NCBI GenBank assembly: GCA_964592525.1
Contig: CAZQFB010000001.1
Span: 65,419 to 129,418, forward strand
Source of the DNA: an uncultured Candidatus Saccharibacteria bacterium
GTDB lineage: Bacteria > Patescibacteriota > WWE3 > CAZQFB01
Length of the DNA: 64,000 nucleotides
Direction of reading: 5' to 3'
Below the pieces are notes generated by a model. The model was not told the origin of the DNA. It was given only the letters and a program-made list of their open reading frames with translations, and searched no databases. Every line of letters starts with the position of its first letter. Positions within the stretch are counted from its first letter, which is position 1. The position numbers and the translations under genes are program-made. This document shows positions 1 to 49,213 of the stretch, piece by piece.

Positions 1-2
1 CT

Positions 3-31177: not shown

Positions 31178-31203
31178 ACGACGTACATATTAACTGAAAG
31201 CTC

Positions 31204-31227: not shown

Positions 31228-31246
31228 GTGGGTATGTTAAGAAGTA

Positions 31247-33064: not shown

Positions 33065-33132
33065 TTTCTGCCCGTGGACCCCTCGTAAAATAATTTGCGA
33101 GGGGTCTGTTGCTTTGTGATACAATTTTCGCT

Positions 33133-33639
33133 ATGAAGGATAACGCTCTTATGATCATTATTGGAGTGGTGCTCGTGTTAGCTATTCTGGTTTTGGGGGG
33201 GCGTGGTAAAGAGACTCCAGAGCAACTGGCTCAACCAGTTAATCAAAATGATGTCAGTGATGAAGTAGTTAACCCAGAGCATAATAACGATGTAATACCG
33301 CAAGTAGTAGATACGGGCGAGCTACAGATTATTGATTTGAAGGAAGGTGTTGGCGAAGCAGTGACACTAGGTACGAGTGTCTCCGTCCATTACACTGGCA
33401 CTTTGATAGATGGCACACCTTTTGATAGTAGTTACGATAGAGGCGTACCCTTTCAAGTTACAGTCGGTTCTGGTCAGGTAATTAAAGGTTGGGAGCAAGG
33501 CTTGCTGGGGATGAAAGTTGGCGGGCAAAGACAATTAGTTATTCCTGCGGCTTTAGCTTATGGTGATCGTAGTCCTTCACCAACAATACCGGCTAATGCC
33601 ACCCTAGTTTTTGTGCTTGAACTTTTGGAAATCAACTAA
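33133..33639 (+). CDS. FKBP-type peptidyl-prolyl cis-trans isomerase, membrane-anchored/secreted
   Basis: N-terminal hydrophobic segment followed by an FKBP domain (VSVHYTGTLIDGTPFDSSYDRGVPFQVTVGSGQVIKGWEQGLLGMKVGGQRQLVIPAALAYG). Confidence 0.8.
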   Translation: MKDNALMIIIGVVLVLAILVLGGRGKETPEQLAQPVNQNDVSDEVVNPEHNNDVIPQVVDTGELQIIDLKEGVGEAVTLGTSVSVHYTGTLIDGTPFDSSYDRGVPFQVTVGSGQVIKGWEQGLLGMKVGGQRQLVIPAALAYGDRSPSPTIPANATLVFVLELLEIN

Positions 33640-33736
33640 GCTTGCTTTTTTCATCAGCACAACTTTTTTACTTGCTTAGATGAGTAGTTTTAGTTTGACT
33701 ACGCTTGTATTTTTCGTTAATATTGCGCTGTAAATG

Positions 33737-33773
33737 AAAGGTGGGTTGCTAAAGCGCACCTTTTATTTTTATT
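33737..33773 (+). terminator. Hairpin AAAGGTG...CACCTTT followed by a T-rich run between the FKBP gene and nusA
   Basis: 7-bp stem with a 13-nt loop, then TTTTATTTTTATT. It may be a terminator or a nusA leader element. Confidence 0.3.
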
Positions 33774-33788
33774 ACCAGGAATTAAATT

Positions 33789-35225
33789 ATGTTACAGTCT
33801 GAATTTGCCTCTGCCTTAAATCAAGTAGCTTCCGAAAGGGGAGTATCTCCAGAAGCGGTTATTAATACTATTAAAGAAGCGATGGTTTCCGCCTACCGTA
33901 AGGAATATGAGATTGAACCCGAAAAAGCAGAAAATATTGAGGTTATTATTGATTCTGAATCAGGTGAAACTAAGTTAATGCTTCTTGGCAAAGATATTAC
34001 GCCTTCTGGTTTTGGACGTATCGCTGCTCAAACCGCTAAACAGGTAATTCTACAAAAGATTAATGAGGCCGAGAAAGAGGCTATTATTAATGAGTACCGA
34101 CAAAAACTAGGCTCAATTGTGTCGGGTACTGTTTTTAGGATGGAAAGAGGTGTCGTGATTGTGGATTTAGGTAAGGCGCATGGTATTATGCCACCAGCTG
34201 AACAAATACCCGGAGAGCACTTCCCTATTGGTCGCCGGATTAGAAGTTTACTAAAAGAAATTCAAGATACTGATCGGGGTGCCGAGGTTATCTTGTCTCG
34301 TTCCGCCCCTGATTTTGTCAGTGAGTTGTTTGCTTTAGAAGTACCGGAGATTAGCGCCGGCACAGTTAAAATTGAAGGTGTCGCCCGGGAAGCTGGTTTA
34401 AGATCAAAAGTTGCTGTTTCGGCTAATGTTGAAAGAGTTGATCCGGTGGGATCTTGTGTGGGTCAAAAAGGTGTTCGCGTGCAGGCAGTAATGGATGAGT
34501 TGGGCGAGGAGCGGATTGATATTATCCCCTATGATCCTTTTATTACTAACTATATCTCTAATGCGTTGTCTCCAGCTAAAGTTCGGGAAGTGGTGGTCAC
34601 CGAGAAAGAAAAGCAGGCCACAGTTGAAGTGGTTGAAGACCAGCTTTCCTTGGCTATCGGTAAGGGGGGTCAAAATGTTCGTTTAGCAGCTAAACTTACT
34701 GGTTGGAAAATAGATGTTAAGGGTGCGGAATTGTTGGATGCTAAGGAGATTGGAGCTGATTTAGGGAAAATAGCGTTGCCATCTCGAGTTGAGAAAGCGC
34801 TGATTGCAGCGGGGATCGTTACCATAGCCACGCTCGCCACTTTATCTGATGAGGAGCTTAGGGAAGTCAAGGGTTTAGGACCCCGAGCTATCAGGGATAT
34901 AAAAGAAGCCTTAACACGGTTCAAAGATTTACCCGATGAGGTTGAAAGCACAAATGAAGAAAGCAAAGAGTCTTTACTTGAGGTCTCTGCACCAGAAACA
35001 GCACCAAACCAGAGTTTGGTTAAGGCGCTGCCAGAGACAGAGTTGGAAAACCCCCAAACAGTATCTACTGGGGATGATTTAGCCCCACAAAAGGAAAAGG
35101 AGACAGACCCAGAAATTGAGGCTCATCCGGAGGTTACAGTGACTACGGCTGAAGCTGCTTTAGAACAACCTGTCGCTCATCAACAAGTTATAGAGGAAAC
35201 CACAGCCGAAAATGCTGAAGCATAG
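33789..35225 (+). CDS. nusA: Transcription termination/antitermination factor NusA with an acidic C-terminal extension
   Basis: N-terminal domain, S1 domain and two KH domains (VGQKGVRVQAVMDELGEERIDII; IGKGGQNVRLAAKLTGWKIDV). Confidence 0.85.
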   Translation: MLQSEFASALNQVASERGVSPEAVINTIKEAMVSAYRKEYEIEPEKAENIEVIIDSESGETKLMLLGKDITPSGFGRIAAQTAKQVILQKINEAEKEAIINEYRQKLGSIVSGTVFRMERGVVIVDLGKAHGIMPPAEQIPGEHFPIGRRIRSLLKEIQDTDRGAEVILSRSAPDFVSELFALEVPEISAGTVKIEGVAREAGLRSKVAVSANVERVDPVGSCVGQKGVRVQAVMDELGEERIDIIPYDPFITNYISNALSPAKVREVVVTEKEKQATVEVVEDQLSLAIGKGGQNVRLAAKLTGWKIDVKGAELLDAKEIGADLGKIALPSRVEKALIAAGIVTIATLATLSDEELREVKGLGPRAIRDIKEALTRFKDLPDEVESTNEESKESLLEVSAPETAPNQSLVKALPETELENPQTVSTGDDLAPQKEKETDPEIEAHPEVTVTTAEAALEQPVAHQQVIEETTAENAEA

Positions 35226-35240
35226 TCAAAGAATTCAATC

Positions 35241-36695
35241 ATGCCAACTAAAAAAACCAGTCTTAATAATGCACGACCACCTATTGTTACTATTATGGGG
35301 CATGTTGATCATGGTAAAACCTCTATTCTTGATCGCGTCAGAAAAAGCAATTTAGCCTCTAAGGAAGCAGGTGCTATCACTCAACATATCGGTGCTTATC
35401 AAGTAGTGTATAAGACTACACAAGGAGAAGAGAAGAAAATCACTTTTATTGATACTCCCGGACATGAAGCCTTTTCAGCTATGAGAGCTAGAGGGGGTCA
35501 CGCAGCAGATATTGTGGTGTTAGTGGTGGCAGCTGATGATAGTGTTAAGGCGCAAACTAAAGAAGCTATTATTCACGCTAAAGAGTCTGGGGTACCAATA
35601 ATTATAGCTATTAATAAAATTGATTTGCCTAATGCTGATCCCGAGAAAGTCAAACAAGATTTATTAAAAGAAGGTATTCAGGTTGAATCATTAGGAGGTC
35701 AGGTAGTCTGTGTGGAGTTGTCAGCTAAAACTGATAAGGGTATAGCGGAATTGTTGGAGTTAATCAATGTGGTGGCGGAGTTGGAAGAATTAACATGTGA
35801 TCTAGGTGCTTCTTTGAGTATGGTCGTAATTGAAGCTAATGTTAGTGCGCAAAAAGGACATACCGCTGCGGTGGTCGTTCTTAATGGCAAGCTTACTACT
35901 GGTCTTAGTCTCTACAGTGGTGAAAAATATCTTGGTAAAGTCAGAGCAGTTTATAATGATTGGGGGAAAAAGATAACCCAGGCTTTACCAGGAGATCCGG
36001 TTGAGATCTTAGGGTTTAAAGAACTACCCATTATTGGCTCTTTACTTACCAATGAACCCAGTAGTGAGCTAGTCACTACTCCGGAAATAGTAACAACAGA
36101 GCCGGATGAGCGGGCTCATTTATCTTTAGTGGTTAAAGCTGATACCCAAGGTACTCTAGAGGCGGTGGTTGCTTCTTTACAAAGATTGGATGACGACGAA
36201 GCTTCAGTGGCGTTAATCTTTCAAGGTGTAGGAGAAGTGACGGAAGCGGATGTTTTATTAGCGTCGGCTGCTAAAGCAATGATTGTTGGTTTTAATGTTG
36301 TCTTTCCAGCTAATGTCATTTCTTTAGCCGAGAGTATGGGAGTTTCGCACAGAACTTATACCATTATTTACCAATTGCTGGAGGATATAACAAAACGTCT
36401 CGCTGGTTTGGAAATTGATGATGGTTATGTTGGTAAAGGTTTGGCGGTGGTAGTGGCCATTTTCCCCTTAACTTCTGGTGATACAGTAGCGGGGTCCCTG
36501 GTTACTCATGGGCAGTTTAAAGAAGGTGATAAAGTACGAGTACTTAGAGAAGGAGAAGAAGTTGCTCGAGGAGTGGTTAAGCAAATAAAAGTCGGTCAAG
36601 ACCGAGTTACTAAGGTTACTAAAGGTGGAGAGTGTGGTGTGTTGTTGAAACCTGGATTTGCTTTGCTGGTTCAGGATGTTTTAGAGGTTGTTTAA
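35241..36695 (+). CDS. infB: Translation initiation factor IF-2 (short form beginning near the G domain)
   Basis: PPIVTIMGHVDHGKTSILD, IDTPGHEAF, NKIDLPNADP; it lies downstream of nusA. Confidence 0.9.
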   Translation: MPTKKTSLNNARPPIVTIMGHVDHGKTSILDRVRKSNLASKEAGAITQHIGAYQVVYKTTQGEEKKITFIDTPGHEAFSAMRARGGHAADIVVLVVAADDSVKAQTKEAIIHAKESGVPIIIAINKIDLPNADPEKVKQDLLKEGIQVESLGGQVVCVELSAKTDKGIAELLELINVVAELEELTCDLGASLSMVVIEANVSAQKGHTAAVVVLNGKLTTGLSLYSGEKYLGKVRAVYNDWGKKITQALPGDPVEILGFKELPIIGSLLTNEPSSELVTTPEIVTTEPDERAHLSLVVKADTQGTLEAVVASLQRLDDDEASVALIFQGVGEVTEADVLLASAAKAMIVGFNVVFPANVISLAESMGVSHRTYTIIYQLLEDITKRLAGLEIDDGYVGKGLAVVVAIFPLTSGDTVAGSLVTHGQFKEGDKVRVLREGEEVARGVVKQIKVGQDRVTKVTKGGECGVLLKPGFALLVQDVLEVV

Positions 36696-36712
36696 ATCTT
36701 GGAGTACTGATT

Positions 36713-37363
36713 ATGAGGATTGACTCGACTGGCGGGTCTTTTTTAAATCTTTTAAAAGAATCAGACTCTGCCCTAGTAGTTGCCAATCCTGTAGCAGGTG
36801 AGGAGGTGGTGGCTTCTTTATTGGCTTTGAAGTTCTTGTTGGAACGGATGGGACAAAAAGTGACTTTGGTTTATCCGGCTCAATTACCGACCTCGGCTAA
36901 TGAATTGCCGGGGTTTGCCGAAATCAGGACCACGCTTCCAGCCAGAAGTTTAAAGGTCAGTTTTGGTATTAATAAAACTGTCAAAAAAGTGGGTTATCAA
37001 GTCAAGGATGGTGTTTTTACGATGTTGGTTGAACCGTCGGAAGGTTGTTTGTATGCTAGCAATATCACTTTAGCGCCACAACCACTCAAGATCGATTTAG
37101 CTATATTTTTAGGCTATTCTTCTTGGCAGGAAATTGGTGTTTTAGCCCAAGAAATCGGTTTAGAGACAAGAGCTCTTCCGGTAATAAATATTGATAACCA
37201 TCACCATAACACTTTGTATGGTCAACTTAATATTGTTGATACTAGTGCAGCTAGTATTGCGGAGATACTCTTTAAAGCGATCCCCAGCTGGGGTCTTAAG
37301 CCGACCTATAGCTCGGCTAAATGTCTGTTGTATGGCTTGGGTTTAACAGATTCTTCATCCTAA
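36713..37363 (+). pseudogene. DHH-family phosphoesterase (NrnA-like) lacking the DHHA1 domain; a truncated gene or gene remnant
   Basis: The DHH motif NIDNHHHN is present, but the ORF stops right after CLLYGLGLTDSSS (equivalent to the NrnA GIxTDTG motif). No DHHA1-coding capacity remains before rpsO. Confidence 0.4.
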
Positions 37364-37464
37364 GCCAGAGACCAATACACACTAGATAATAAGTTACCTG
37401 GAGCTAATTATTCTCGGTTATATTTTCTGCTGCAGTATTTGTAATTTTGGTATTTAATAAAGTA

Positions 37465-37495
37465 GATATCCCATAAGATATTGATTAGGATATCT
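37465..37495 (+). promoter_or_regulatory. Inverted repeat AGATATCC-N15-GGATATCT in the rpsO 5' leader
   Basis: A perfect 8-bp inverted repeat about 55 nt upstream of the rpsO ATG. S15 commonly autoregulates through 5'UTR structure. Confidence 0.25.
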
Positions 37496-37549
37496 AGTTC
37501 TGTTAAAATATTTCAAGCTAACAATTACTTTTTATGGAAGTTAATTATT

Positions 37550-37819
37550 ATGTCTTTGGAAAAGAACACCAAACAGTCTATTATTGGCGATTTTGCCAAG
37601 CACGAGAAAGATACCGGCTCACCGGAGGTTCAGGTTGCGCTCTTGACTCGTAGAATTTTAGAGCTACAAAAACATCTAAGAGAACACAAGAAAGATAATC
37701 ATTCTCGAAAGGGTTTATTGCAGTTAGTTAACAAGCGTCGACGTATTTTGTCTTATCTGCAGCGGGTAGATGAATCAAGATATAAATTGGTGCTTGATCG
37801 GGTGGGTTTATCAAAATAA
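37550..37819 (+). CDS. rpsO: 30S ribosomal protein S15
   Basis: MSLEKNTKQSIIGDFAKHEKDTGSPEVQVALLTRRI ... HLREHKKDNHSRKGLL. The start is at the internal ATG of the listed ORF. Confidence 0.9.
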   Translation: MSLEKNTKQSIIGDFAKHEKDTGSPEVQVALLTRRILELQKHLREHKKDNHSRKGLLQLVNKRRRILSYLQRVDESRYKLVLDRVGLSK

Positions 37820-37939
37820 ATAAATTATTAATGGAGGTGGGTTAGTAGGTATTGGTGTTGGATAGTGAACATGGTGCAGATAAAAGTTATTGCCCCATTT
37901 GCATTATTCAGCTCTTTACCATATTTTCCCAGATATTAA

Positions 37940-40096
37940 ATGGATGATACAAAATTATTAAGTCAAAATTTTGCTGGGCGTGAGCTTAGTTTCGAAAGTA
38001 ATAAATATGCTCCTTACGCTAACGTCTCGGTTAAGATTCAATATGGTGATACGGTGGTTTTAGCAACGGTGACCTCTGCCGAGCCTTTGGAGGGAACTGA
38101 TTTTTTCCCCTTACGGGTTGATTATGAAGAAAAATTATATGCGGGTGGTTTAATAAAAGGTTCTAGGTTTATTAAACGAGAGGGTCGACCGACTGATGAG
38201 GCTATTTTAGGTTCTCGGTTGATTGATCGGGCGATTAGACCATATTTTCCTAAGGATTACATGGATCAGGTGCAGGTGATAGCGACGGTTCTTTCGGTGG
38301 ATGACGAGAATGACCCCCAATTAGTAGCTTTATGGGGGGTTTTAACGGCCCTCCATATCTCCGATATTCCTTGGCAGGGACCAATGGGGGCAGTGCAGGT
38401 TGGTTTGATTGATAATAATTTAGTGATTAATCCCACCGCGACGCAGAAAGTCAACGCCACCTTAAATTTATTGGTCTGTGCTAGTAGTGAACGTGTAGTG
38501 ATGCTTGAGGCGGAAGGTCATGAAGTTGCAGATGAGCAGGTGGCTGAAGCTATTATTTTTGGTCACACTAAGGTGCAAGAGCTGCTTGCCATTATTGATC
38601 AGTATCGGCAGCAAGTGGGTCAAGAGAAGTATGATTATCAGTCAACTGCTATTGCTGAAGAACTGTTGCTTGAGCTTAGAAAAAGTTATGGTGGGGAAAT
38701 TAAGCAGGCACTTGAGCAAGACTTTGATAATCAAAATTTAATCAAGAATATTGTGGCTAAAGCTTTAATTAGTTATCAGGAGGTTTATAGCGAAAATGTT
38801 ATTTCGTGCGCGATAAACAAAATAAAAAAGGAGTTTATCAGAGAGAATATTTTAGTCAACGAGCACCGAGTTGATGGTCGAAAGTTGGATCAAATTAGGG
38901 AGTTATCAATAGAAATTGGTCTGTTGCCTAGAACTCATGGGAGTGCTTTATTCCAAAGGGGTTATACGCAAGTATTAACGATTGCCACTTTAGGTTCAGC
39001 TTCTAGTGGCCAGTTATTAGAAGGGATGCATGGTACGAGCACCAAAAATTATCTTCATCATTATAATGCACCACCTTTTTCTAGTGGTGAGGTGGGGGTG
39101 ATGCGCGGACCAGGTAGGCGGGAAATTGGCCATGGGGCTTTAGCGGAAAAAGCGTTAGCTCCCGTATTGCCTAAAGAAGAAGAATTTCCCTACACCATTC
39201 GCTTGGTCTCGGAAGTGTTAGCCCAGAACGGGTCTAGTTCTATGGCATCAACGTGTGGTTCGTCTCTAGCTTTAATGGATGCAGGTGTGCCTATTAGCAA
39301 ACATGTAGCTGGTATTTCTATTGGTTTAGTTGAAGGTGATAATGCCAATTACAAGTTATTAACTGATATTAGAGGTGTGGAAGATTTTAATGGTGATATG
39401 GATTATAAAGTGGCGGGTACCAAAGATGGGGTGACGGCCATACAGCTTGATGTTAAAAATAGCGGTTTAACACCTGAAATGGTGAAAGAAGTAATGCAGA
39501 AAGCTAAAAGTGGTCGCCTTTATATTTTGGAACAGATGGCTAAGGTCATTGCGGAACCTAAAAAGGATATTTCTAAGTATGCCCCTATGGTATTCACGCT
39601 CAAGATAGATCCGGAGAAAATCGGGGCGGTGATTGGTAGTGGTGGAAAAGTGATTAAGGGGTTGATTGAAAAAACTGGGGCGGATATCAGCGTGGAAGAC
39701 GATGGTAGTATTTTTGTTGCGAGTGAAGATCGGGCAGCAGCCGAAAAAGCGCTTAATTTGATTAAAGGGATAGTGGCTGAACCAGAGGTTGGCAAAGTAT
39801 ATCCTGGTCGGGTCATGCGGATTATGGATTTTGGTGCTTTTGTGGAATTTTTACCTGGTAAAGAAGGGTTGGTTCACATTTCAGAGTTGTCACATGAACA
39901 CGTTAATAAGGTTACAGATGTGGTTAAGGTGGGTGACGAGCTTGAGGTTAAGATCATTGAAATTGATAATTTGGGTAGAGTAAATTTGTCGCTCAAGGCT
40001 CTGCAGACTAAACCCTCCAAGCCGGATGCTTCCAAAAAAGACAACTTCAGAAAACAGAAGCCTGCTGCGACGAATGGTTGGTCTCCACGCCACTAA
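37940..40096 (+). CDS. pnp: Polyribonucleotide nucleotidyltransferase (PNPase)
   Basis: Two RNase PH-like domains, a KH domain (IGAVIGSGGKVIKGLIEKTGA) and an S1 domain (GKVYPGRVMRIMDFGAFVEF); 718 aa. Confidence 0.9.
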   Translation: MDDTKLLSQNFAGRELSFESNKYAPYANVSVKIQYGDTVVLATVTSAEPLEGTDFFPLRVDYEEKLYAGGLIKGSRFIKREGRPTDEAILGSRLIDRAIRPYFPKDYMDQVQVIATVLSVDDENDPQLVALWGVLTALHISDIPWQGPMGAVQVGLIDNNLVINPTATQKVNATLNLLVCASSERVVMLEAEGHEVADEQVAEAIIFGHTKVQELLAIIDQYRQQVGQEKYDYQSTAIAEELLLELRKSYGGEIKQALEQDFDNQNLIKNIVAKALISYQEVYSENVISCAINKIKKEFIRENILVNEHRVDGRKLDQIRELSIEIGLLPRTHGSALFQRGYTQVLTIATLGSASSGQLLEGMHGTSTKNYLHHYNAPPFSSGEVGVMRGPGRREIGHGALAEKALAPVLPKEEEFPYTIRLVSEVLAQNGSSSMASTCGSSLALMDAGVPISKHVAGISIGLVEGDNANYKLLTDIRGVEDFNGDMDYKVAGTKDGVTAIQLDVKNSGLTPEMVKEVMQKAKSGRLYILEQMAKVIAEPKKDISKYAPMVFTLKIDPEKIGAVIGSGGKVIKGLIEKTGADISVEDDGSIFVASEDRAAAEKALNLIKGIVAEPEVGKVYPGRVMRIMDFGAFVEFLPGKEGLVHISELSHEHVNKVTDVVKVGDELEVKIIEIDNLGRVNLSLKALQTKPSKPDASKKDNFRKQKPAATNGWSPRH

Positions 40097-40123
40097 ATTT
40101 TCTAGATACGGTATCATAGTAGT

Positions 40124-40906
40124 ATGGGTAAAAATCAAACTAAGCCTGAATCTGTTTTTGAGCCTTTGCCGTTAGTTAAGTATTTGCTGGGGATCCCTTT
40201 AGCGATTGTTGTTTTGGGCTTGAGTGTTTATGGTCTTGGTTATTTAATCAAAACTTATAACAAGCAAGAAACAGTTAATTACCAGGAATATCCAGTAAAG
40301 ATGAAAGTGGCTATAGCCCCTTTTCCTAATGCTCTCCTTCATGAAATTGGCTGTGCTAGTATCACTCCGGAGGAGCTCTGGTTATATTTGGAATCAGGTT
40401 CTTTGCTTGGCACATTAAGTATTTTAGGGTCACAATATGATCTAAACCAATTAGGGGAGGTGTTGGGTCAGGATGAAGCGGTTTTGACAAATTTAGACCC
40501 AAGATTTTCTCTTGTTCAGGAGGAGGGTATGCTCGCGCTCATTTTTAAGATTTTGTCTCGTGAAGAAGTGACCAGTTGGGCAGAAGATACTACGTGGCCA
40601 GAAACCTGGGCGCCTTATTTTATTGGTGATTTTATGGTAGTCACTAATGCGGAGGAAATGGCTGACAAGATAGACAGTGCTTTTAAAAAAAGAATTGTGT
40701 CGCTTAGCTTAAATTCTTCTTTTCAAGGAAGTATTAATCATTTAGATAAAGAAGGTATGATGTTTATCTACCTACCTTTGAGAAATAAAAAGCAAGATTT
40801 TCCAACGGTGTTGACCGGAACCAGTTTGCATTGGGACGATAAGGTTACAGGCACGGCCTTTGTTCTTAAGGAGGATCAGGGTACAGTTGTATTAATTGAG
40901 GAATAA
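40124..40906 (+). CDS. Hypothetical single-pass membrane protein
   Basis: One N-terminal TM helix (LLGIPLAIVVLGLSVYGLGYLI) and no recognisable motifs. Its stop lies 4 nt before the ATG of the Lon-like ATPase gene. Confidence 0.4.
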   Translation: MGKNQTKPESVFEPLPLVKYLLGIPLAIVVLGLSVYGLGYLIKTYNKQETVNYQEYPVKMKVAIAPFPNALLHEIGCASITPEELWLYLESGSLLGTLSILGSQYDLNQLGEVLGQDEAVLTNLDPRFSLVQEEGMLALIFKILSREEVTSWAEDTTWPETWAPYFIGDFMVVTNAEEMADKIDSAFKKRIVSLSLNSSFQGSINHLDKEGMMFIYLPLRNKKQDFPTVLTGTSLHWDDKVTGTAFVLKEDQGTVVLIEE

Positions 40907-40910
40907 ATAT

Positions 40911-41972
40911 ATGGATGCTAATGCTGCCCCAGAAAACTACGAATTTAAGGAGTTAGAAGAACTACAGCGAGTTTTAACATCCTCCGAAATGCCAGAAGAT
41001 CTTAAGGAAAAAGCCTTTCGGATGTTGGAAAGACTTAACCGGATGGCTACTCATGGGGGTTATAGCGCTGAGTTTGAAGTAGTTTCTCGTTATATTTCTT
41101 GGACGGTGTCTTTGCCCTGGAATGAAAAAACTAGTGATACTTTGGATCTGAAAAAGGCCCAACAAACCTTGGATGCCACTCATTATGGGATGCAAAAAGT
41201 CAAAGATCGCATATTAGAGTATTTGTCAGTATTAACCTTAACGCATACTCGTGAAAACAACGTCCAATCGGCGGTTCTTTGTTTAATTGGTTTACCTGGT
41301 TTGGGTAAAACTTCGGTGGCTAAATCAATTGCTACGGCTTTAGGAAGACAATTTGTTCGGGTGGCAATGGGTGGTTTGGGAAGTGCTTCACAGCTTAGAG
41401 GGGTACCGAAAACCGTAGTAAGTGCTGAACCAGGAGATATTATCAAAGGTATAAAAAGAGCGGGTACGAAAAATCCGGTGATTTTACTTGATGAAATTGA
41501 TCGGGTTAGTGAAAATGTACGCGCGGATGTAATGGGAGTGCTTTTGGAGTTATTGGATCCAGAACAGAATAACGCTTTTATTGATTATTACATTGATTAT
41601 CCGTTTGATCTTTCTAATGCCTTGTTTATCTGTAGTGGGAATAATACTGGGGGGGTGGCTAATGCGGTGTTGGATCGGTTAGAAATCTTGGAAATGCCGT
41701 CATATACTGATGAGGAGAAAAAAGTGATCGGCAAAGATTACTTATTGCCGAAAGCTTTATATGAGGCAGGTCTACAACCAGAGCAATTATTAATAGAAGA
41801 TACTTTGTGGAATAGCATTATCCGGCCTTTAGGCTATGATGCTGGTATTAGAACGCTTGATCGAACAGTCCGTGGTATTACTCGCAAGGTTGCTCGTAAG
41901 ATTGTTGAAGGGGAAGCGACGTCTTTTACTATTACCGAACAAAATGTTAAAAACTTTTTACCTACCTGGTGA
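40911..41972 (+). CDS. Stand-alone Lon-type AAA+ ATPase module (no Lon N-domain and no protease domain)
   Basis: Collinear with Lon residues from the pre-AAA helix to the AAA+ lid. Matches include YISWTVSLPWN, HYGMQKVKDRILEYL, LCLIGLPGLGKTSVAKSIATALGRQFVRVAMGG, ILLDEIDR, LLELLDPEQNNAF and DAGIRTLDR. The ORF ends about 350 aa in, where Lon would continue into its S16 protease domain. Confidence 0.6.
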   Translation: MDANAAPENYEFKELEELQRVLTSSEMPEDLKEKAFRMLERLNRMATHGGYSAEFEVVSRYISWTVSLPWNEKTSDTLDLKKAQQTLDATHYGMQKVKDRILEYLSVLTLTHTRENNVQSAVLCLIGLPGLGKTSVAKSIATALGRQFVRVAMGGLGSASQLRGVPKTVVSAEPGDIIKGIKRAGTKNPVILLDEIDRVSENVRADVMGVLLELLDPEQNNAFIDYYIDYPFDLSNALFICSGNNTGGVANAVLDRLEILEMPSYTDEEKKVIGKDYLLPKALYEAGLQPEQLLIEDTLWNSIIRPLGYDAGIRTLDRTVRGITRKVARKIVEGEATSFTITEQNVKNFLPTW

Positions 41973-42604
41973 GCAGTATGGTTAGCAAGGAGGATTTAGT
42001 TAAAGAGCTTGAGATGGAGGTGTTAACCTGTCAACGTTGCCGTTTATGTCAAACGGCTAAACAGGCAGTACCGGGAGCTGGTTCAGCGCAAGCAAAAATT
42101 ATGTTTGTCGGGGAAGCCCCGGGGTATTATGAGGATCAACAGGGAATTCCTTTTGTTGGTCAAGCGGGTAAATTGCTAGACAAGTTATTGGCTGATATTT
42201 CGATCAAGCGCGCAGAAGTGTACATTACTAATGTGGTCAAACACCGACCGCCGGAAAATCGGGATCCTTTTCCCGATGAAATTAAATTCTGTAAGCCTTT
42301 TTTGGATAGGCAGTTGGAGATCATTAATCCACAAGTCATTGTGGCTTTGGGTAGGTTTGGGTTGCAGTATTTTTTTCCAGACAGCAAAATCTCGGCTGAT
42401 CATGGGGTGCCCAGATTTTGGGGTGTGCGTTTAGTTTACCCGGTTTATCATCCTGCGGCAGCTTTGAGAAATCCCGCTGTTGGCAGGGTACTTAGGGAAG
42501 ATTTTTTAAAGCTACCAGAAATTATTAGCAAAAAAGAGGAGTTACTATATCAACCGTTAATAACTGAAGATGATAGTAATCCGCAAATGAGGTTATTTAA
42601 ATAA
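41969..42604 (+). CDS. Uracil-DNA glycosylase, family 4
   Basis: CQRCRLC ... MFVGEAPGYYEDQQGIPFVGQAGKLLDKLL ... ITNVVKHRPPENRDP, the family 4 UDG signature. Confidence 0.8.
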   Translation: MSSMVSKEDLVKELEMEVLTCQRCRLCQTAKQAVPGAGSAQAKIMFVGEAPGYYEDQQGIPFVGQAGKLLDKLLADISIKRAEVYITNVVKHRPPENRDPFPDEIKFCKPFLDRQLEIINPQVIVALGRFGLQYFFPDSKISADHGVPRFWGVRLVYPVYHPAAALRNPAVGRVLREDFLKLPEIISKKEELLYQPLITEDDSNPQMRLFK

Positions 42605-42608
42605 AACA

Positions 42609-44312
42609 ATGAAACAATATCATCAACATTCGGGTAAAAACGATCGCCGTGGGGTATTAAAGTTGCTGCCTCTAGGTGGTATGGGAGATGTTACGAAAAA
42701 TATTTATGTTTATGAATATAATCAGGAAATAATTGTTGTTGATTGTGGTATTGGTTTTCCTGAAGGAGACTTGCTGGGTATAGACATTGTTATTCCAGAT
42801 GTCACTTACCTAAAGAAAAAAGCCTCACAAGTGAAAGCGATGCTCATAACCCATGGTCATAACGATCATTACTCGGCTTTGCCCTATGTCATACCACAGA
42901 TACCGGCTAGTTTTCCGGTTTACGCGACTAAATTGGTACGAGGCTTCATTAAAAACTCATTAAATGAATTTGGGTTACTCGAAAAAGTTGATGTTCGTGA
43001 GATTGATCCCGAAGGTACACCACTGAAAATCGGGTCTTTTGAAATTATTCCTTTTCGGGTTAACCATTCCGTGCCTGATGCTGTGGGGTTTATTATTAAA
43101 ACCCCAGGTGCTTCGGTAGTTCATGTTAGTGACTTTAAATTTGACTGGACCCCAGTTGATGGTAAGGTGTTTGCTGTTAACCGTTTGTGTAAGTACATTG
43201 AAAATGGGGTTGATTTACTGCTCTCTGATTGTTTGGGCTCACATAAACAGGGTTTCACCCAATCGGAGAAAGATATTGAACACTCTTTTGATGATTTGTT
43301 GGATACTGCTAAGGGGCAAGTGTTTATCACGGCGACTTCTTCCAGTGTAGCGCGAATTCAGCAGGCTATTAATTCTTCTGTTAGACACAATCGCCAGGTA
43401 GTTCTGCTAGGTAAATCTGTACGTGATAATGTCACTATTGCTAACGAGCTGGGTTACATGTCTATTCCTAAAGGGGTTTTAGTGGAGACTAGAAAGGTAA
43501 GTCAGTTTCCAGCGCATAAGGTAACTTATATTGTGGCGGGGTGTTATGGTCAGAAGGGTTCAGCGATGCACCGGTTGGCCGAAGGCGATTCAAAGTATGC
43601 CCAGATTGGTAAAGGTGATATGGTTATTTTTTCTGGAGACCCTGCTCCTTCTGGAGTGAAGGATGCAGTGGACCGAGTGGTTGATAAATTAACGGCTTTA
43701 GGGGCAGATGTACATCACTATGAAATTCAAGAAAACCTACATGTTTCTGGTCATGGTGCGCAAGGTGACATGCTAATGTTGGCGCAGATTGTGAAGCCTA
43801 AGTATTTTGTGCCGATTGGGGGTACCGCCAGTACAATGAGAGGTTACACCAAATTAATGGAAAAGGCAGGTTACAGTACTGACTGTGTTTTTGAGCTGGA
43901 AAATGGTGAAACTTTAGAGATTAGAAATGCCAAAGCGCGTCTTGGGCAAAAAATTAAAGTGGCTGATATCTTTGTTGATGGTTTGGGGGTAGGAGATGTG
44001 GGGCGTAAAGTCTTAGAAGAAAGAACCGAATTATCAGAATCGGGGGTATTGGTTGTGGCTATTCCTCTGCAGAAAGGCACCAATCGTTTGGTGGGTGAGG
44101 TGCAAGTTTCCTCTCGTGGTTTTGTGTTTGAGAAAGATTCAGCACCGCTGCTGACAGAAATTAAAAAATTGTCTACTAAGTTGCTCAATGAAAAATTAAA
44201 TCAAAGTAAGTTAACGGTTCTCAAAAAAGAGTTGGAGGTTGAGATAGCCAAGTATGTTTTTAAAGAAACTGAACGTGAACCTATTATTGTTTCCATGCTG
44301 ATTTATGTATGA
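42609..44312 (+). CDS. rnj: Ribonuclease J (metallo-beta-lactamase/beta-CASP)
   Basis: LPLGGMGDVTKNIYVYEY, HGHNDHYSALPYV, beta-CASP and C-terminal domains; 567 aa. Confidence 0.8.
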   Translation: MKQYHQHSGKNDRRGVLKLLPLGGMGDVTKNIYVYEYNQEIIVVDCGIGFPEGDLLGIDIVIPDVTYLKKKASQVKAMLITHGHNDHYSALPYVIPQIPASFPVYATKLVRGFIKNSLNEFGLLEKVDVREIDPEGTPLKIGSFEIIPFRVNHSVPDAVGFIIKTPGASVVHVSDFKFDWTPVDGKVFAVNRLCKYIENGVDLLLSDCLGSHKQGFTQSEKDIEHSFDDLLDTAKGQVFITATSSSVARIQQAINSSVRHNRQVVLLGKSVRDNVTIANELGYMSIPKGVLVETRKVSQFPAHKVTYIVAGCYGQKGSAMHRLAEGDSKYAQIGKGDMVIFSGDPAPSGVKDAVDRVVDKLTALGADVHHYEIQENLHVSGHGAQGDMLMLAQIVKPKYFVPIGGTASTMRGYTKLMEKAGYSTDCVFELENGETLEIRNAKARLGQKIKVADIFVDGLGVGDVGRKVLEERTELSESGVLVVAIPLQKGTNRLVGEVQVSSRGFVFEKDSAPLLTEIKKLSTKLLNEKLNQSKLTVLKKELEVEIAKYVFKETEREPIIVSMLIYV

Positions 44313-44349
44313 TGAGTGTATTAGTATTTAGGTAGGATTGACGATTATA

Positions 44350-46620
44350 ATGCTCAAGCGAAAAAGGAAATACCGAAAGAAGAGTTCCTTAAGATTAAAG
44401 GCTTCTACGCTTAAATCGTTGCTGTCTATATTTTTGTGGGTGGCAGCCATTTTCACACTGTTTTCTTTTTTTGGTCAGGCAGCAGATTTTGGTTTTGCGG
44501 CACAGGAACACATTAATCGCTTATTTGGTTGGGGAGCTTTTTTGCTACCTTTTTTGTTAGCTGACTTGGGATATATCCTTTTTGATTATCAACGCAACCG
44601 CTATGCTACTTGGCCTTTTTTGCTTGGGTTGGTGTTGTTAATGTTAAGTGTTATTACCCTTGCTCATTTATTTCTTCCCGTGGAAACTGCTAAAACCGAA
44701 GCTACTCTAGGACAAGGGGGTGGGATGATTGGTTTTTATCTGCAACTCGTGCTAAGGCGCAGTATCTCACCTTTGCTGACTCTGCTCCTATTATTGGGTA
44801 CTTTTGTGGCTGCCATATTAATTCTTTTTAATACTTCTTTGTCTGTTTTGGTTAATCATTTGGGTCGGTTGTTTAATAAGTGTTATACGTGGGTACACCT
44901 TTATTTTGGCTCAATTTTTGCACCCTTATTACGAATGTGGAAACAAAGGGAAGCACCGGAAGCCTTGGCTACCGAGGAACCAACGACCTTTACTATTGGG
45001 GGTACAGAAGCGTTGGTGGAGAATGTGCCAGCAGCCAAACCAGCACCGCTTTTTGAAGAGCTCACGCCTTCTTTTCAGCCAGTCATTCCCGGTGAGCTGC
45101 CTTTAAGTCAAAGAGAAGTACGGATTGAAACGGTGACCAACCCACCTTTTCTCGAAGGTGTTTGGGAATACCCACCGATGAGTTTATTGCAGGAGGAAAC
45201 CAAAACCAAACCGGATCAAACTCGTTTGAATGCTAGTGCCAAAATAATTGAGAGTACTTTGGAGAAATTTGGGGTGTTAGCCAAAGTGGTGGAAGTTAAT
45301 TTAGGACCAGCTATTACTCAATACGCCCTTAAGTTAAACGATGGGACCAAGATAAGTAAGGTCACTAATTTGCAGAGTGATTTGGCTTTAGCTTTGGCTG
45401 CTCCGGGGGGTACGGTTCGCATAGAAGCGCCAATTCCTGGCAAATCTTTGATTGGGATTGAAGTTCCTAATCCTGGTTTAAAATTAGTGCCCTTAAAGAA
45501 GATGTTAACCTCCAAAAAAATGCAAGAGATGAAATCGGTTTTGGCGGTAGCTTTGGGGGAAGATGTGTCTGGTAACCCGGTAATAACTGATTTGACGAAG
45601 ATGCCACATGTGTTAATTGCTGGTTCTACGGGTAGTGGTAAGTCGGTCATGATTAATGCCATGATAGCTGCCATTCTGTTTCGAGCCTCCCCAGCGGAAG
45701 TGAAACTGATTTTAGTTGATCCAAAACGGGTGGAGTTGAGTCAGTATCGTGGTATTCCGCATTTGTTGACCGATGTGGTGGTTGAACCTGAAAAAGTATT
45801 GTCAGCTTTGAGGTGGGCAATGTCAGAAATGGAGAAAAGGTATAAGTTATTTGAAAAAGCAGGTGTGCGAAACATTGCCGGATATAATGAAGCGTTGGGT
45901 TTTCAATCACTTCCTTACATAGTGATTATCATTGATGAGTTAGCTGATATTATGATGACTGCACCCCGAGAGGTTGAAAGTGCAATCTGTCGCATATCCC
46001 AACTAGCCCGAGCGACTGGTATTCATCTGATTGTGGCTACCCAACGTCCTTCAGTGGATGTTTTAACTGGGTTGATAAAAGCGAATGTACCTTGCCGGAT
46101 TGCTTTTAATGTTTTTTCTATGGTTGATTCCAGGGTGATTATTGATGGTCCTGGGGCGGAGAAATTACTGGGTCGGGGTGATATGTTATATGTGCCTCCA
46201 GATTCATCAAAACCAATGAGAATTCAAGGGGTGTATATGTTTGATAAAGAAATCAACGCCTTGATAAATTTTTTGCGGTCAAGTGGCTTTGCGCCCGAGT
46301 TAAAAGAAGAAATATTAACATTTGTTGACCAGCATCATGGCATTGATGCCAAGTCTCGTGATGAGTGTTTTGAGGAAGCATTGTTAATGGTAGTGGCTGA
46401 AGGGTTGGCTAGCACCAGCATGCTACAAAGAAAGCTTAAGATCGGTTACAATAGAGCGGCTAATATTATGGAGGCGTTGGAGATTGCTGGGGTTGTTAGT
46501 CCTCCAGATAAGGCTAAAAAGAGAAATGTATTAATCACGGATCCTCAACAAGTGTTAGGAAATCAAGAAGATGAAAATGAAGAAAGTCGGAAGTATCCTT
46601 CGGAAGGCTCGGGAGGATAA
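44350..46620 (+). CDS. ftsK: DNA translocase FtsK/SpoIIIE
   Basis: N-terminal TM helices; motor domain with Walker A motif IAGSTGSGKSVMINAMI and IIIDELAD; C-terminal gamma domain. Confidence 0.85.
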   Translation: MLKRKRKYRKKSSLRLKASTLKSLLSIFLWVAAIFTLFSFFGQAADFGFAAQEHINRLFGWGAFLLPFLLADLGYILFDYQRNRYATWPFLLGLVLLMLSVITLAHLFLPVETAKTEATLGQGGGMIGFYLQLVLRRSISPLLTLLLLLGTFVAAILILFNTSLSVLVNHLGRLFNKCYTWVHLYFGSIFAPLLRMWKQREAPEALATEEPTTFTIGGTEALVENVPAAKPAPLFEELTPSFQPVIPGELPLSQREVRIETVTNPPFLEGVWEYPPMSLLQEETKTKPDQTRLNASAKIIESTLEKFGVLAKVVEVNLGPAITQYALKLNDGTKISKVTNLQSDLALALAAPGGTVRIEAPIPGKSLIGIEVPNPGLKLVPLKKMLTSKKMQEMKSVLAVALGEDVSGNPVITDLTKMPHVLIAGSTGSGKSVMINAMIAAILFRASPAEVKLILVDPKRVELSQYRGIPHLLTDVVVEPEKVLSALRWAMSEMEKRYKLFEKAGVRNIAGYNEALGFQSLPYIVIIIDELADIMMTAPREVESAICRISQLARATGIHLIVATQRPSVDVLTGLIKANVPCRIAFNVFSMVDSRVIIDGPGAEKLLGRGDMLYVPPDSSKPMRIQGVYMFDKEINALINFLRSSGFAPELKEEILTFVDQHHGIDAKSRDECFEEALLMVVAEGLASTSMLQRKLKIGYNRAANIMEALEIAGVVSPPDKAKKRNVLITDPQQVLGNQEDENEESRKYPSEGSGG

Positions 46621-47659
46621 ACTCCTTGAATACAAAGATGTAGCTGCTCAAACCAAAATCCATCCTCGCTACTTGAAAGCACTGGAGGATGAAGATTATG
46701 GTGTTTTTAGTTCTGATGTTCACTTGCAAGGGTTTCTTAAAGCCTATGTAGAATATTTGGGCTTGAATGAAACTGAAATTGTGGCCTTTTTCCGTCGCGA
46801 CTATGCTTTGGGATCTCTAGATAAAAAGAAAAAACAAGCGGTTACTCCCCTTAACATGCCAAAATTCCTAATCACTCCCAGCTTAGTGGTGTCTAGTGCT
46901 ATCTTATTATTAGTGTTGGCTTTTTTCGGGTACCTCTTTTTTGAGTATCGTTCTTTTGCGGGGGCGCCATTGTTGCTTATTGAATCTCCAGCCGAAGAGG
47001 TAACAACAATCAACACTAGTTCGGTGGTTATTGCTGGTAAGACTGATCCCGATGCAGTGGTGTCTATTAATGGACAGAAAATAACGCTGGGAGAGAAGGG
47101 TCTTTTTTCGACGCCGATAACTTTGGTAGATGGTATTAATGTATTAACGATTACCGCTGAAAATAAACTGGGTAAGCAATCAAGAGAATCTAAGACAGTA
47201 GTGGTGGAAAGGGCTAAGACGGCTGTTACTAGCGGTGCCGAAGCAGTAGCGGAAGTACTTTACGAGGGGGTGCAGTTGGTTGTGACGGTTGGTCCAAGTG
47301 CTGCTTGGGTGGAGATTACCACTGATGGTAAAAAAGAATTTGATGGCTTACTGGCTTCTGGAGTAACGCGAGCGGTTAAGGCAGTGAGTGTGGTTCGGGT
47401 TTTGTCGGGTAATGCTGGTTCCACTGCCGTTGCGGTTAATGGTAAGGATGTGGGTAAAATGGGGGAGGAAGGAGCTGTGGTGGAAAAGGTGTATAGAGCG
47501 GAGGAGCAGGGTATTAGTGTTGAGGATTCTCCCGCAGAAGGTGAGGAGGTGGAAGCCGATTTAGCTATTGAGGAAAATATTGACGCAGGTACGCAAAACT
47601 TAGAAACAGAGGTGGAGGTTAATGATACGCTTGAGCTACCGGACAGCGAAAATCCTTAA
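46571..47659 (+). CDS. rodZ: RodZ-like HTH-membrane cytoskeletal protein
   Basis: N-terminal XRE-type HTH (LRKAREDKLLEYKDVAAQTKIHPRYLKALED), one TM helix and a C-terminal beta-rich domain. It overlaps the ftsK 3' end. Confidence 0.55.
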   Translation: MKMKKVGSILRKAREDKLLEYKDVAAQTKIHPRYLKALEDEDYGVFSSDVHLQGFLKAYVEYLGLNETEIVAFFRRDYALGSLDKKKKQAVTPLNMPKFLITPSLVVSSAILLLVLAFFGYLFFEYRSFAGAPLLLIESPAEEVTTINTSSVVIAGKTDPDAVVSINGQKITLGEKGLFSTPITLVDGINVLTITAENKLGKQSRESKTVVVERAKTAVTSGAEAVAEVLYEGVQLVVTVGPSAAWVEITTDGKKEFDGLLASGVTRAVKAVSVVRVLSGNAGSTAVAVNGKDVGKMGEEGAVVEKVYRAEEQGISVEDSPAEGEEVEADLAIEENIDAGTQNLETEVEVNDTLELPDSENP

Positions 47660-48419
47660 AGTCGTCAATCCCGAGAAGAAGACGTTTTAACCAGTATTGT
47701 GTTTGGAGAGCACAAAGTTGGTAGTTTCGCTCTATTAGTAGAGTATTCAGATTAGGAAATAAGTGTGGTTCAACTTCATGCTCGTGTAGACAGAGAGCGT
47801 GTGGTGTGTAGGTGATATCCCAACCACAAACGTGCAAAAACCAAGCGTATTCAGCGTCCTCTCCGACTCTTAGCTTTTCATTAAAAGGTCTTTTGTCCCA
47901 GATTGCTTTGCGGATGCTACAGCAGGCTCTCGCAAAATCAGTCAACCGATTCTTTTTATTTATGCCAGAAAAAGGTCCGACCTTTTTAAGGCTGATGGTT
48001 GTAGTGTTCTCGGGAAACCTTTTAGCTGGCCAGTAGTTTGGGTAATAATACCCCTCCCTGTGGGAAATCACGTATTTACCGTAGGTTCCGCCAACCTTTG
48101 GGTTTGTATAAGGTTTAATTAATTCCGCCACGAAGTTGGTGCCTTGGGGAAGCGCATCTCCTGAAAGTCTGATCAGATATGCTCCTTTTGCTTGGGAGGC
48201 GCCCACATTAAAGGCGTTGGCATAGTTGAAATATTTGGGTTGGATTTCAAGCAAAGTAATTTTTTCTCTTTTTAGGTATTCTCGTGCACCATCAGTTGAT
48301 CCCGAATCTACCACGATGATTTCTAAATCTTCTTTAAGAGTTTGTGTCAGAAGTGTGGAGATGGTTTTGCGTAGATATTCTTTCTGATTTTTGGTGATCA
48401 GGATAGCGGAGGCTAACAT
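47619..48419 (-). CDS. Family 2 glycosyltransferase
   Basis: ASAILITKNQKEYLRKTISTLLTQT ... IIVVDSGSTDGA, a GT2 DxD-type fold. It overlaps the rodZ 3' end convergently. Confidence 0.7.
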   Translation of the reverse strand: MLASAILITKNQKEYLRKTISTLLTQTLKEDLEIIVVDSGSTDGAREYLKREKITLLEIQPKYFNYANAFNVGASQAKGAYLIRLSGDALPQGTNFVAELIKPYTNPKVGGTYGKYVISHREGYYYPNYWPAKRFPENTTTISLKKVGPFSGINKKNRLTDFARACCSIRKAIWDKRPFNEKLRVGEDAEYAWFLHVCGWDITYTPHALCLHEHEVEPHLFPNLNTLLIERNYQLCALQTQYWLKRLLLGIDDFKDFRCPVAQAYH

Positions 48420-48523
48420 TTGTTGAAATTGTAATCTAATTGCTTAATAGCTGCAAACCATACTGGCTAGTAGTCTTGACACCCCAGCTTTGTTGTTTTA
48501 GTCTGAAAGTAGAATAACTGCCT

Positions 48524-49112: not shown

Positions 49113-49213
49113 TTCCATCTGCTGGCGTTTAGTGACGTGTTATAGTTGTGTAGGGGAATTTTATGTTTTCCCGCCATTGTGAATTATATTTGTTAAACCT
49201 ATAATAAAGGGTG

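Follow-up and report, generated by a model that had tools for sequence, protein, structure and literature searches.

A stand-alone LonA-type AAA+ ATPase without N-domain or protease domain in Microgenomates-type Patescibacteria

The window, as we call the whole 64-kb stretch of DNA that was analysed, encodes an AAA+ ATPase that our comparisons support as a genuine stand-alone derivative of LonA, ending at LonA domain boundaries and made up of an NTD-3H helical bundle, an AAA+ alpha/beta subdomain and a Lon lid. The ATPase family is specific to Microgenomates (OP11-type Patescibacteria), and 582 loci were confirmed in species-representative genomes of Microgenomates-type Patescibacteria. No description of the family was found in the literature on Lon in Patescibacteria, CPR or Microgenomates, or on Lon-like ATPases without a protease domain. 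With moderate confidence, we interpret its members as LonA-derived, Microgenomates-specific, ring-forming remodelling ATPases that act independently of a protease, and for which the membrane protein encoded upstream in the window (ORF-X) is not a required subunit.

The gene extends from an ATG at 40911 to a stop codon at 41970–41972 (Table 1). Its product has 353 aa, not the 354 aa of the first-pass annotation, which was right about the ORF itself. The sequence GAGGAA lies 8–13 nt 5' of the ATG, and the stop of ORF-X is 4 nt away from it, in agreement with the earlier description of a 260-aa single-pass ORF ending just before the ATPase. All four motifs listed at that time (GLPGLGKTS, ILLDEIDR, LLELLDPEQN and DAGIRTLDR) are present in the ORF.

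Table 1 Features of the ATPase gene and its neighbours in the window.
Feature	Position	Strand	Remark
pnp (PNPase)	37940..40096	+	among upstream neighbours of the family, the most conserved
ORF-X, 260-aa single-pass membrane protein	40124..40906	+	lineage-specific upstream neighbour
Predicted transmembrane/signal-anchor helix of ORF-X, residues ~17–39	40172..40240	+	hydropathy/model
Stand-alone LonA-type AAA+ ATPase gene	40911..41972	+	353 aa plus stop
N-terminal three-helix bundle (residues ~13–70, equivalent to LonA NTD-3H)	40947..41120	+	ends in invariant LPW
Walker A GLPGLGKTS (Lys133 = E. coli Lys362)	41289..41315	+	197/197 conserved
Remodelled pore-loop 1, RGVPKTVVSAEPG	41397..41435	+	Val169 at E. 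coli Tyr398 position
Walker B VILLDEID (Asp194, Glu195 = E. coli Asp423, Glu424)	41478..41501	+	Asp and Glu 197/197
Sensor-1 Asn244 (41640–41642) and arginine finger Arg256 (41676–41678)	41640..41678	+	Asn 177/197, Arg 197/197
Sensor-2 Arg314 in DAGIRTLDR of the Lon lid	41850..41852	+	197/197
C-terminal FLPTW-COOH (family [FY]LPxW)	41955..41969	+	at the start of the linker that leads to the protease domain in LonA
Family-4 uracil-DNA glycosylase (UDG)	41969..42604	+	nothing Lon-like after the ATPase

The likeness of the ATPase to Lon is well above chance level. Residues 250–579 of E. coli Lon are collinear with it in blastp (39.6% identity, E 1e-84), as had been noticed from the sequence, and further matches were obtained with B. 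subtilis LonA (5e-90) and the E. coli Lon AAA+ module (6.6e-80). Pfam placed an AAA domain at residues 128–264 (8e-20) and a Lon_lid at residues 290–341 (2.5e-10). The NCBIfam model TIGR00763 'lon' was matched with an E value of 6.9e-108, but only over positions 253–571 of its 795, and the scores were below the curated equivalog cutoffs (362 versus 608 bits for TIGR00763, 282 versus 891 for NF008053). The AF2 model (pLDDT 86) resembled LONP1/LonA, as well as 6n2i, a structure of the E. coli AAA+ module on its own, at a Foldseek TM of ~0.8. The protein has no hydrophobic segment, with a top 19-residue hydropathy of 1.27.

Compared with E. coli Lon, B. subtilis LonA and human LONP1, the ATPase shares the NTD-3H, AAA+ alpha/beta and lid parts at 40–45% identity, together with the Walker spacing, the equivalents of the Tyr456/Glu458 hairpin, sensor-1, the arginine finger and sensor-2. 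These LonA proteins (MEROPS S16.001), however, have a PUA-like/long-helix N-domain and an S16 Ser-Lys peptidase domain, and the window ATPase has neither. Neither LON_substr_bdg (PF02190) nor Lon_C was matched by the ATPase in Pfam, and neither the N-domain (1–240) nor the P-domain (585–784) of E. coli Lon had a match in any frame of the window (phmmer E<=10, tblastn E<=1). The same two domains were absent from phmmer and tblastn matches within ±6 kb at 86 related loci, about 1 Mb in total. The first-pass observation that both domains are absent is confirmed. The space upstream, where a Lon N-domain would be, is filled by ORF-X or pnp, and a degenerate N-domain inside ORF-X was ruled out by the lack of a sequence match and by the different fold of its model. 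At the other end, the chain stops at the A/P linker of LonA and is followed by the UDG gene. The earlier annotation had correctly named UDG as the next gene but had placed it 1 nt later; it starts either at GTG 41969, a 4-nt overlap with the ATPase stop as in the public gene call, or at ATG 41978. A hidden or frameshifted protease domain downstream, which would have undermined the first-pass interpretation, was ruled out, as no Lon_C similarity was detected in any frame.

The truncated architecture, and nothing more, could suggest a lon pseudogene in decay, or an artefact of assembly or frameshift. We regard this reading as having a negligible probability, and the conservation data refute it: hundreds of independent assemblies share the boundaries, the catalytic residues are invariant, and no Lon_C remnant lies 3' of the gene in any frame. 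The best 120 homologues are all 342–389 aa long. The alignment with LonA bears out the earlier proposal that the ends of the ORF are domain boundaries, and the length is conserved across hundreds of genomes.

Residue conservation was counted over 197 family members, with numbering by E. coli Lon equivalents. All 197 keep the equivalents of Lys362, Asp423, Glu424, Arg484 and Arg542, and 177 keep that of Asn473; the functions of these residues follow the account for Lon in PMC7239648. In the pre-sensor-1 hairpin, the Tyr456 position is filled by Tyr or Phe and the Glu458 position by Asp in 189/197. In the window copy, Walker A Lys133 and Walker B Asp194 are 61 positions apart, the same as Lys362 and Asp423 of E. 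coli Lon, which is the LonA-type spacing (60 residues between Lys and Asp). Judged from these alignments, the residue set appears complete for an active ring-forming AAA+ ATPase of the HCLR clade. In LonA, the P-domain ring adds to hexamer stability; for the present family, the invariant arginine finger is the feature suggesting that oligomers may form without a P-domain.

The family departs from LonA in pore-loop 1 and at the entry pore. In place of the LonA Tyr-Ile pair, pore-loop 1 has a variable residue followed by Pro, and then a conserved Glu, with the consensus R-x-[F/H/L/Y]-P-[D/E]-A-E-P-G. The Tyr398 position is occupied by Phe in 52 members, His in 45, Leu in 37, Tyr in 25, Ser in 9, Arg in 8 and Val in 6; the Ile399 position is Pro in 151/197, and the Met402 position is Glu in 190/197. 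The window copy has Val-Val at the Tyr398-Ile399 pair and so lacks the substrate-grip pair of LonA. At the entry pore, Met284 is replaced by Tyr in 148 members and by Phe in 30. In the NTD-3H bundle of the window copy, this residue is Tyr51, while Tyr61 and Trp64 are the equivalents of E. coli Lon Tyr294 and Trp297. Among the roles assigned to Lon residues, pore-loop-1 Tyr398-Ile399 is needed for substrate threading (PMC7239648). The loss of this pincer, the gain of Pro and Glu, and the change of Met284 to Tyr or Phe suggest that substrate would be contacted differently than in Lon. As the pore-loop residue is still Phe or Tyr in ~39% of members, the family may yet use classical threading. Of the earlier description as a Lon-derived unfoldase or remodeller, the Lon-derived ATPase without both domains is thus retained, and the unfoldase part is less certain, since the pore-loop-1 Tyr is not conserved.

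The C-terminus is also distinctive. The family ends in [FY]LPxW, and the chain stops exactly 42 aa past sensor-2 in 142/197 members, with Trp as the last residue in 148/197. By analogy with HbYX tails, an aromatic C-terminus conserved in this way might be able to bind the ring of a partner. The motif could be a docking site for a separately encoded partner, in which case the ATPase would not be stand-alone. The ATPase is likewise a separate polypeptide in ClpX/ClpP, HslU/HslV and the HbYX-tailed proteasomal ATPases, although the window ATPase falls in the Lon branch and not in the ClpX, HslU or PAN branches. By analogy with ClpX/ClpP and HslU/HslV, the ATPase might be the motor half of a split Lon and dock, perhaps via [FY]LPxW, to a peptidase ring whose gene lies elsewhere in the genome. 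The position of the tail, exactly where LonA runs on into the P-domain, and the full conservation of the ATPase machinery are consistent with such an arrangement. We nevertheless consider it unlikely: no S16/Lon-like domain was detected within ±6 kb at 86 loci or in the window, the Tyr-Ile pair required for Lon threading is not conserved, and the described Lons are all single chains, with the ATPase fused to the peptidase in the published classification (PMC9569914).

The ATPase gene is carried in a block with the order rpsO-pnp-[variable slot]-ATPase-[udg]-rnj-ftsK. We found pnp directly upstream of the ATPase in 38/84 loci, with unrelated genes in the slot in other lineages. More broadly, pnp was located on the same strand no more than two genes upstream in 57/80 loci and rnj no more than three genes downstream in 48/82, both occurring in 36. 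These associations would fit an ATPase of RNA metabolism or the ribosome, which would remodel RNA-protein complexes or aid a PNPase/RNase J degradation machinery. However, nusA-infB-rpsO-pnp...rnj-ftsK is a conserved housekeeping order, and the adjacency may only be inherited. In Roizmanbacteria the ATPase is located elsewhere, and the protein has no nucleic-acid-binding domain. Residues R306/K308/K310/K311 of E. coli Lon, which we take to be its basic DNA-binding patch, align with K/S/T/L in the window ATPase. On balance, we see little likelihood in an RNA-linked function. Scanning the window for tRNAs and Rfam families gave no hits, and a promoter/terminator scan around the ORF-X and ATPase genes gave nothing above shuffled expectation.

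ORF-X has one N-terminal hydrophobic segment (residues 17–35, mean Kyte-Doolittle 2.2) and no match to sequence-family models (Pfam, NCBIfam). A word-indexed search with ORF-X alone found only ORF-X itself, a 5-sequence profile found 12 proteins, and a full HMMER scan reached 244 representatives, including 82 at or below 1e-10. ORF-X is therefore fast-evolving and no orphan, and by sequence its family appears small. In 74/89 family representatives, a Zn-ribbon is followed by one transmembrane segment and then a ~230-aa alpha/beta domain; the window copy lacks the Zn-ribbon. The position of the Zn-ribbon before the transmembrane segment, together with a positive-inside bias, predicts an N-in, C-out topology, in which only a ~16-residue tail of the window protein would be cytoplasmic and the bulk of ORF-X is predicted to be outside the cell. 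The ORF-X model had a pLDDT of 68, with core residues 80–190 above 80, and its best fold resemblance was to the extracytoplasmic lipoprotein TP0453 of Treponema pallidum (PDB 3k8g). Identity to TP0453 and other extracytoplasmic alpha/beta lipoprotein/sensor domains was 12%, at moderate model confidence. ORF-X is probably a cell-surface membrane protein and not a required subunit of the ATPase.

The first-pass annotation had regarded ORF-X and the ATPase as a two-gene module and had suggested membrane anchoring or substrate recognition by ORF-X, as in LonB. A dedicated system of this kind, with ORF-X anchoring the ATPase to the membrane or recruiting its substrates, has several observations on its side. 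ORF-X directly precedes the ATPase, usually overlapping it, in 11/12 X-family loci sampled, distant members included, and at one locus (L005) the pair is intact though four genes part the ATPase from udg. Curtissbacteria carry another single-pass membrane protein in the slot, with a 4-nt overlap, and this protein gave a weak collinear hhalign match to ORF-X (E 1e-3). Homology between the two was not demonstrated: hhalign gave a probability of 6% from 5 sequences and of 22% when 89 were used. Tight spacing is common to every gene of the block and is therefore not specific evidence for coupling. The co-occurrence check suggested with the original claim upheld co-location within the X lineage but not co-conservation wherever either gene occurs: about 70 of the 84 ATPase loci lack ORF-X, and at another locus (L091) the X gene keeps its position although the ATPase is missing. 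LonB/LonBA, from which the membrane-association idea came, likewise lack the LonA N-domain, but the layout found in 74/89 representatives would place the bulk of ORF-X outside the cell and weakens the analogy. The membrane anchor lies inside the AAA+ module in LonB and is N-terminal in LonBA, and both retain a protease domain (PMC9569914). The transmembrane insertion between Walker A and B and the B-type protease domain that mark LonB are both missing from the window ATPase. We therefore hold a dedicated, LonB-like X-ATPase system to be improbable; ORF-X is a lineage-specific neighbour in a variable slot, dispensable and no fixed partner of the ATPase.

In the scenario that we favour, a protease-independent ATPase, the family would derive from LonA by loss of the substrate-recognition N-domain and the C-terminal S16 peptidase domain, leaving the NTD-3H bundle and the AAA+ module. 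The remaining protein would assemble into a Lon-like ring, hydrolyse ATP and act as a remodelling or chaperone-type machine with a substrate contact unlike that of Lon, while its gene lies in a housekeeping block whose variable slot ORF-X occupies. Proteolysis-independent chaperone activity of Lon has been reported for yeast PIM1; there the protease domain was present but inactivated, whereas in the window ATPase it is wholly absent. The PIM1 case would be a precedent for a useful Lon ATPase that does not cleave proteins. A bolder and quite doubtful reading is a re-tooled protease-free Lon motor retained throughout the Microgenomates, a new AAA+ machine for RNA-degradation or ribosome complexes or for a non-Lon partner, wired in one sub-lineage to the Zn-ribbon, transmembrane, sensor-like ORF-X. 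The Pro/Glu pore loop, the aromatic entry collar and the docking-like C-terminal [FY]LPxW are the features behind it.

Some pipelines (JGI names) label these genes 'ATP-dependent Lon protease', a label that misleads, since the proteins alone cannot be proteases. A widely conserved protease-less LonA module with intact catalytic residues would be a natural experiment on the lone Lon motor, possibly as a chaperone or remodeller, and on the way in which machines without proteolytic activity arise from AAA+ proteases. Little is known about protein quality control in the ultra-small Patescibacteria, and the family also bears on their proteostasis.

The AAA+ protein encoded directly downstream of ORF-X (the gene for a single-pass membrane protein, X) contains only two Pfam domains, AAA (residues 128–264) and Lon_lid (290–341). 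The NCBIfam 'lon' equivalog model TIGR00763 matched it at 6.9e-108 over only model positions 253–571 of 795, and the score of 362 bits was below the cutoff of 608. The solved structures that matched best are B. subtilis LonA (5e-90), the isolated AAA+ module of E. coli Lon (6n2i, 6.6e-80) and Lon proteins of Thermus, Yersinia, Meiothermus and human; residues 250–579 of E. coli Lon were 39.6% identical (blastp). An AlphaFold2 model built from 24 family members (pLDDT 86, pTM 0.77) gave query-normalised TM-scores of ~0.75–0.81 against LONP1 and LonA chains, and 0.80 and 0.83 against 6n2i. The N-terminal ~70 residues correspond to NTD-3H, the three-helix bundle capping the Lon ATPase ring, and the C-terminus lies at the start of the LonA linker to the protease domain (FLPTW here versus DYLGVQRF in E. 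coli). The Walker A Lys and Walker B Asp are 61 positions apart, matching the value given for LonA (PMC9569914), and the hydropathy of the protein revealed no LonB-type hydrophobic insertion. Judged by these sequence and model comparisons, the ATPase consists solely of a LonA A-domain.

Searches with the N-domain (residues 1–240) and P-domain (585–784) of E. coli Lon found no match in the 64-kb window (phmmer, E ≤ 10; tblastn, E ≤ 1), and hence no frameshifted protease domain, which the first-pass annotation had named as a refuting result. Across 86 related loci (about 1 Mb), the same queries yielded one marginal tblastn match (L012, E 0.31), which according to the cluster map probably falls inside the downstream RNase J-type gene. 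The best 120 database homologues were all 342–389 aa long, with 52–76% identity, and when a single genome of each species was scanned, at least 582 loci were confirmed, all with the same short protein. The negative domain searches and the constant length rule out a truncation artefact or frameshift split, and the probability of a pseudogene or artefact is negligible. The annotation of a genuine Lon-derived ATPase without N-domain and protease domain was thus upheld by the Pfam content, the TIGR00763 range and the short-protein loci.

Among 197 non-redundant family members, 142 end exactly 42 residues past sensor-2, and 172 carry a C-terminal [FY][LI]P-x-aromatic. The nearly invariant ending is [FY]LPxW-COOH, with Trp as the last residue in 148/197, and it may be a docking motif or mere packing on the lid domain. 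In a split Lon, the ATPase would dock through this tail on a peptidase encoded elsewhere; neither a peptidase nor a Lon N-domain was found in cis or nearby (64-kb window, 86 related loci), and we regard this arrangement as unlikely.

ATPase records with a specific Patescibacteria label were of the Microgenomates/OP11 type, comprising Gottesman-, Curtiss-, Roizman-, Collier-, Shapiro-, Ames-, Woese- and Beckwithbacteria and WWE3. Many others were labelled Gammaproteobacteria, Pseudomonadales, Saccharibacteria or otherwise; because their gene context was the same, we infer that these are mislabelled bins. The window has the typical features: a short IF2 (484 aa only), a compact same-strand housekeeping block, and upstream dnaK, FKBP and nusA. 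No tRNA genes or Rfam families at gathering score were found in window positions 1..64000.

Coordinates of features in the window and in related loci
Feature	Locus	Coordinates	Orientation	Length	Remark
UvrD-family helicase	window	513..3347	+	944 aa	fused to PD-(D/E)XK nuclease (AddA-like)
UvrD-family helicase	window	5982..7835	-		
Aldehyde:ferredoxin oxidoreductase-like protein	window	13557..15275	+		AFOR_N 1e-44, partial AFOR_C; in a Patescibacteria genome
Chaperone cluster	window	28070..33639	+		upstream of nusA
dnaK	window	29279..31177			HSP70, confirmed by Pfam
ORF between infB and rpsO	window	36632..37363	+	~243 aa	no Pfam match
pnp	window	37940..40096			upstream of ORF-X
ORF-X	window	40124..40906	co-directional with ATPase	260 aa	
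ATPase ORF	window	ATG 40911 to stop 41970-41972	co-directional with ORF-X	353 aa	
C-terminal motif of ATPase	window	41955..41969			
Family-4 UDG gene	window	41969..42604			downstream of ATPase
Curtissbacteria single-pass membrane protein	L016	4973..5986		~335 aa	also L029, L034, L043, L046, L053, L055, L075
Cys/Met-metabolism PLP enzyme	L078	4795..5949			PF01053, 1e-148; one Gottesmanbacteria genome
X-family gene	L091	2025..2990			JGI 3300033150 contig Ga0366835_1029812

ORF-X and the ATPase ORF run in the same direction between pnp and UDG, separated by 4 nt, with GAGGAA 8–13 nt 5' of the ATPase ATG; an identical protein in a public gene call (P0001) has the same start. The UDG gene starts either at a GTG overlapping the ATPase stop by 4 nt or at an ATG 5 nt after it. 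The first-pass ORF details were correct overall, except for the ATPase length (given as 354 aa) and the UDG start (given as 1 nt later). Junctions across the block were all short (27, 4, -4, 4 and 25 nt), and no promoter or terminator signal above chance was found around the pair, so the X/ATPase junction is not special.

The comparison of gene context took in the window, three relatives from metagenomes and 80 species genomes, 84 loci in all. The immediate same-strand upstream gene was pnp in 38 of the 84, and pnp lay at most two genes upstream in 57/80; within three genes downstream, rnj occurred in 48/82 loci and udg in 29, and 36 loci had both pnp and rnj as flanks. Ancestrally, the genes run nusA-infB-(unknown)-rpsO-pnp-[slot]-ATPase-[udg]-rnj-ftsK. 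Given these neighbours, the ATPase could work with PNPase and RNase J as a remodeller; in Roizmanbacteria the gene is located elsewhere, and we consider this role very unlikely. The ORF between infB and rpsO is conserved in place across 46 Microgenomates loci (cluster 6) and contains 'NIDNHHHN', resembling a degenerate DHH (NrnA-like) motif. Owing to the chaperone cluster, in which grpE, dnaJ and FKBP are putative (from ORF size, position and analogy to L003), protein-folding genes lie less than 10 kb from the Lon-type ATPase, with translation genes between.

Most lineages have nothing in the slot that separates pnp from the ATPase. In the window's lineage the slot is occupied by X, in Curtissbacteria by a different single-pass protein (4-nt overlap in every listed locus; possibly a remote homologue of X, to which its profile aligned collinearly but weakly, at an hhalign probability of 22%) and in Collierbacteria by yet another small membrane protein; the PLP enzyme in L078 shows that it is open to unrelated genes.

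X itself had no Pfam or NCBIfam match, and a word-indexed search found nothing beyond X. Syntenic ORFs were 32–33% (L003, L004) and 17–19% (L005, L007) identical, a profile search gave 12 proteins, and when 1.84 billion representatives were scanned exhaustively with HMMER, 244 matched, 82 of them at 1e-10 or better; most are ~300–320 aa long. Of 89 representatives, 87 reached the hydropathy threshold and 84 had exactly one TM segment (sliding-window count). A CxxC...CxxC zinc-ribbon precedes the TM segment in 74 (Pfam zinc-ribbon matches sub-threshold), and the N-terminal side of the segment is the more basic flank in 57 and the less basic one in 13. The N-terminal ribbon, single TM and basic N-flank indicate a predicted layout with the Zn-ribbon in the cytoplasm, a single membrane pass and a ~230-aa domain outside the cell; the ribbon has been lost from the window's X and the proteins closest to it. 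X lies directly 5' of the ATPase in 11 loci (window, L003, L004, L005, L007, L088, L089, L090, L092, L093, L094). The order in L091 is pnp-X-udg-rnj, and this locus lacks a Lon-type ATPase, so at least one lineage retaining X has lost the ATPase or has it elsewhere. Together with the ATPase loci lacking X, this makes the two neighbours, each able to occur without the other. The two-gene membrane module proposed by the first-pass annotation was therefore not borne out and has little probability; in the X lineage the cytoplasmic Zn-ribbon may link the two functionally, but such a link cannot define the ATPase family.

Residue counts come from an alignment of the 197 members to E. coli Lon, with roles taken from Yersinia/E. 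coli Lon (PMC7239648). Equivalents of Walker A Lys362, Walker B Asp423 and Glu424, arginine finger Arg484 and sensor-2 Arg542 are present in 197/197, and sensor-1 Asn473 in 177/197; the pre-sensor-1 hairpin Tyr456 position is Tyr/Phe in all, and Glu458 is Asp in 189/197. This conservation argues for an ATP-hydrolysing, ring-forming ATPase, an oligomer being suggested by the invariant arginine finger, which acts in trans. In pore-loop 1, the substrate-gripping Tyr398 position varies (F52/H45/L37/Y25/S9/R8/V6; the window protein has Val), Pro replaces Ile399 in 151/197, Gly400 is Asp/Glu in 133/197, Met402 is Glu in 190/197, and Arg395 is lost. The loop has therefore been remodelled under a constraint of its own and has not merely decayed. 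At the entry position of NTD-3H, Met284 is replaced by Tyr in 148/197 and Phe in 30/197, and these changes suggest that the client is engaged differently from Lon. They leave a classical Lon-like unfoldase less certain than the first-pass annotation assumed.

By sequence, the ATPase is a catalytically equipped, LonA-derived NTD-3H + AAA+ protein kept across the whole lineage. We lean towards a model in which it would assemble into Lon-like rings and use ATP to remodel clients without degradation, contacting them through an aromatic NTD-3H collar and the Pro/Glu-bearing pore loop. It descends from LonA and would work like it, yet belongs to none of the Lon protease subfamilies A, B, BA and C, all single chains with a P-domain (PMC9569914). 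In databases the family goes under 'AAA family ATPase' or the misleading 'ATP-dependent Lon protease', and literature searches found no description of it. What is new is not the proposed two-gene system; the family represents an uncharacterised, lineage-wide, protease-less Lon motor.
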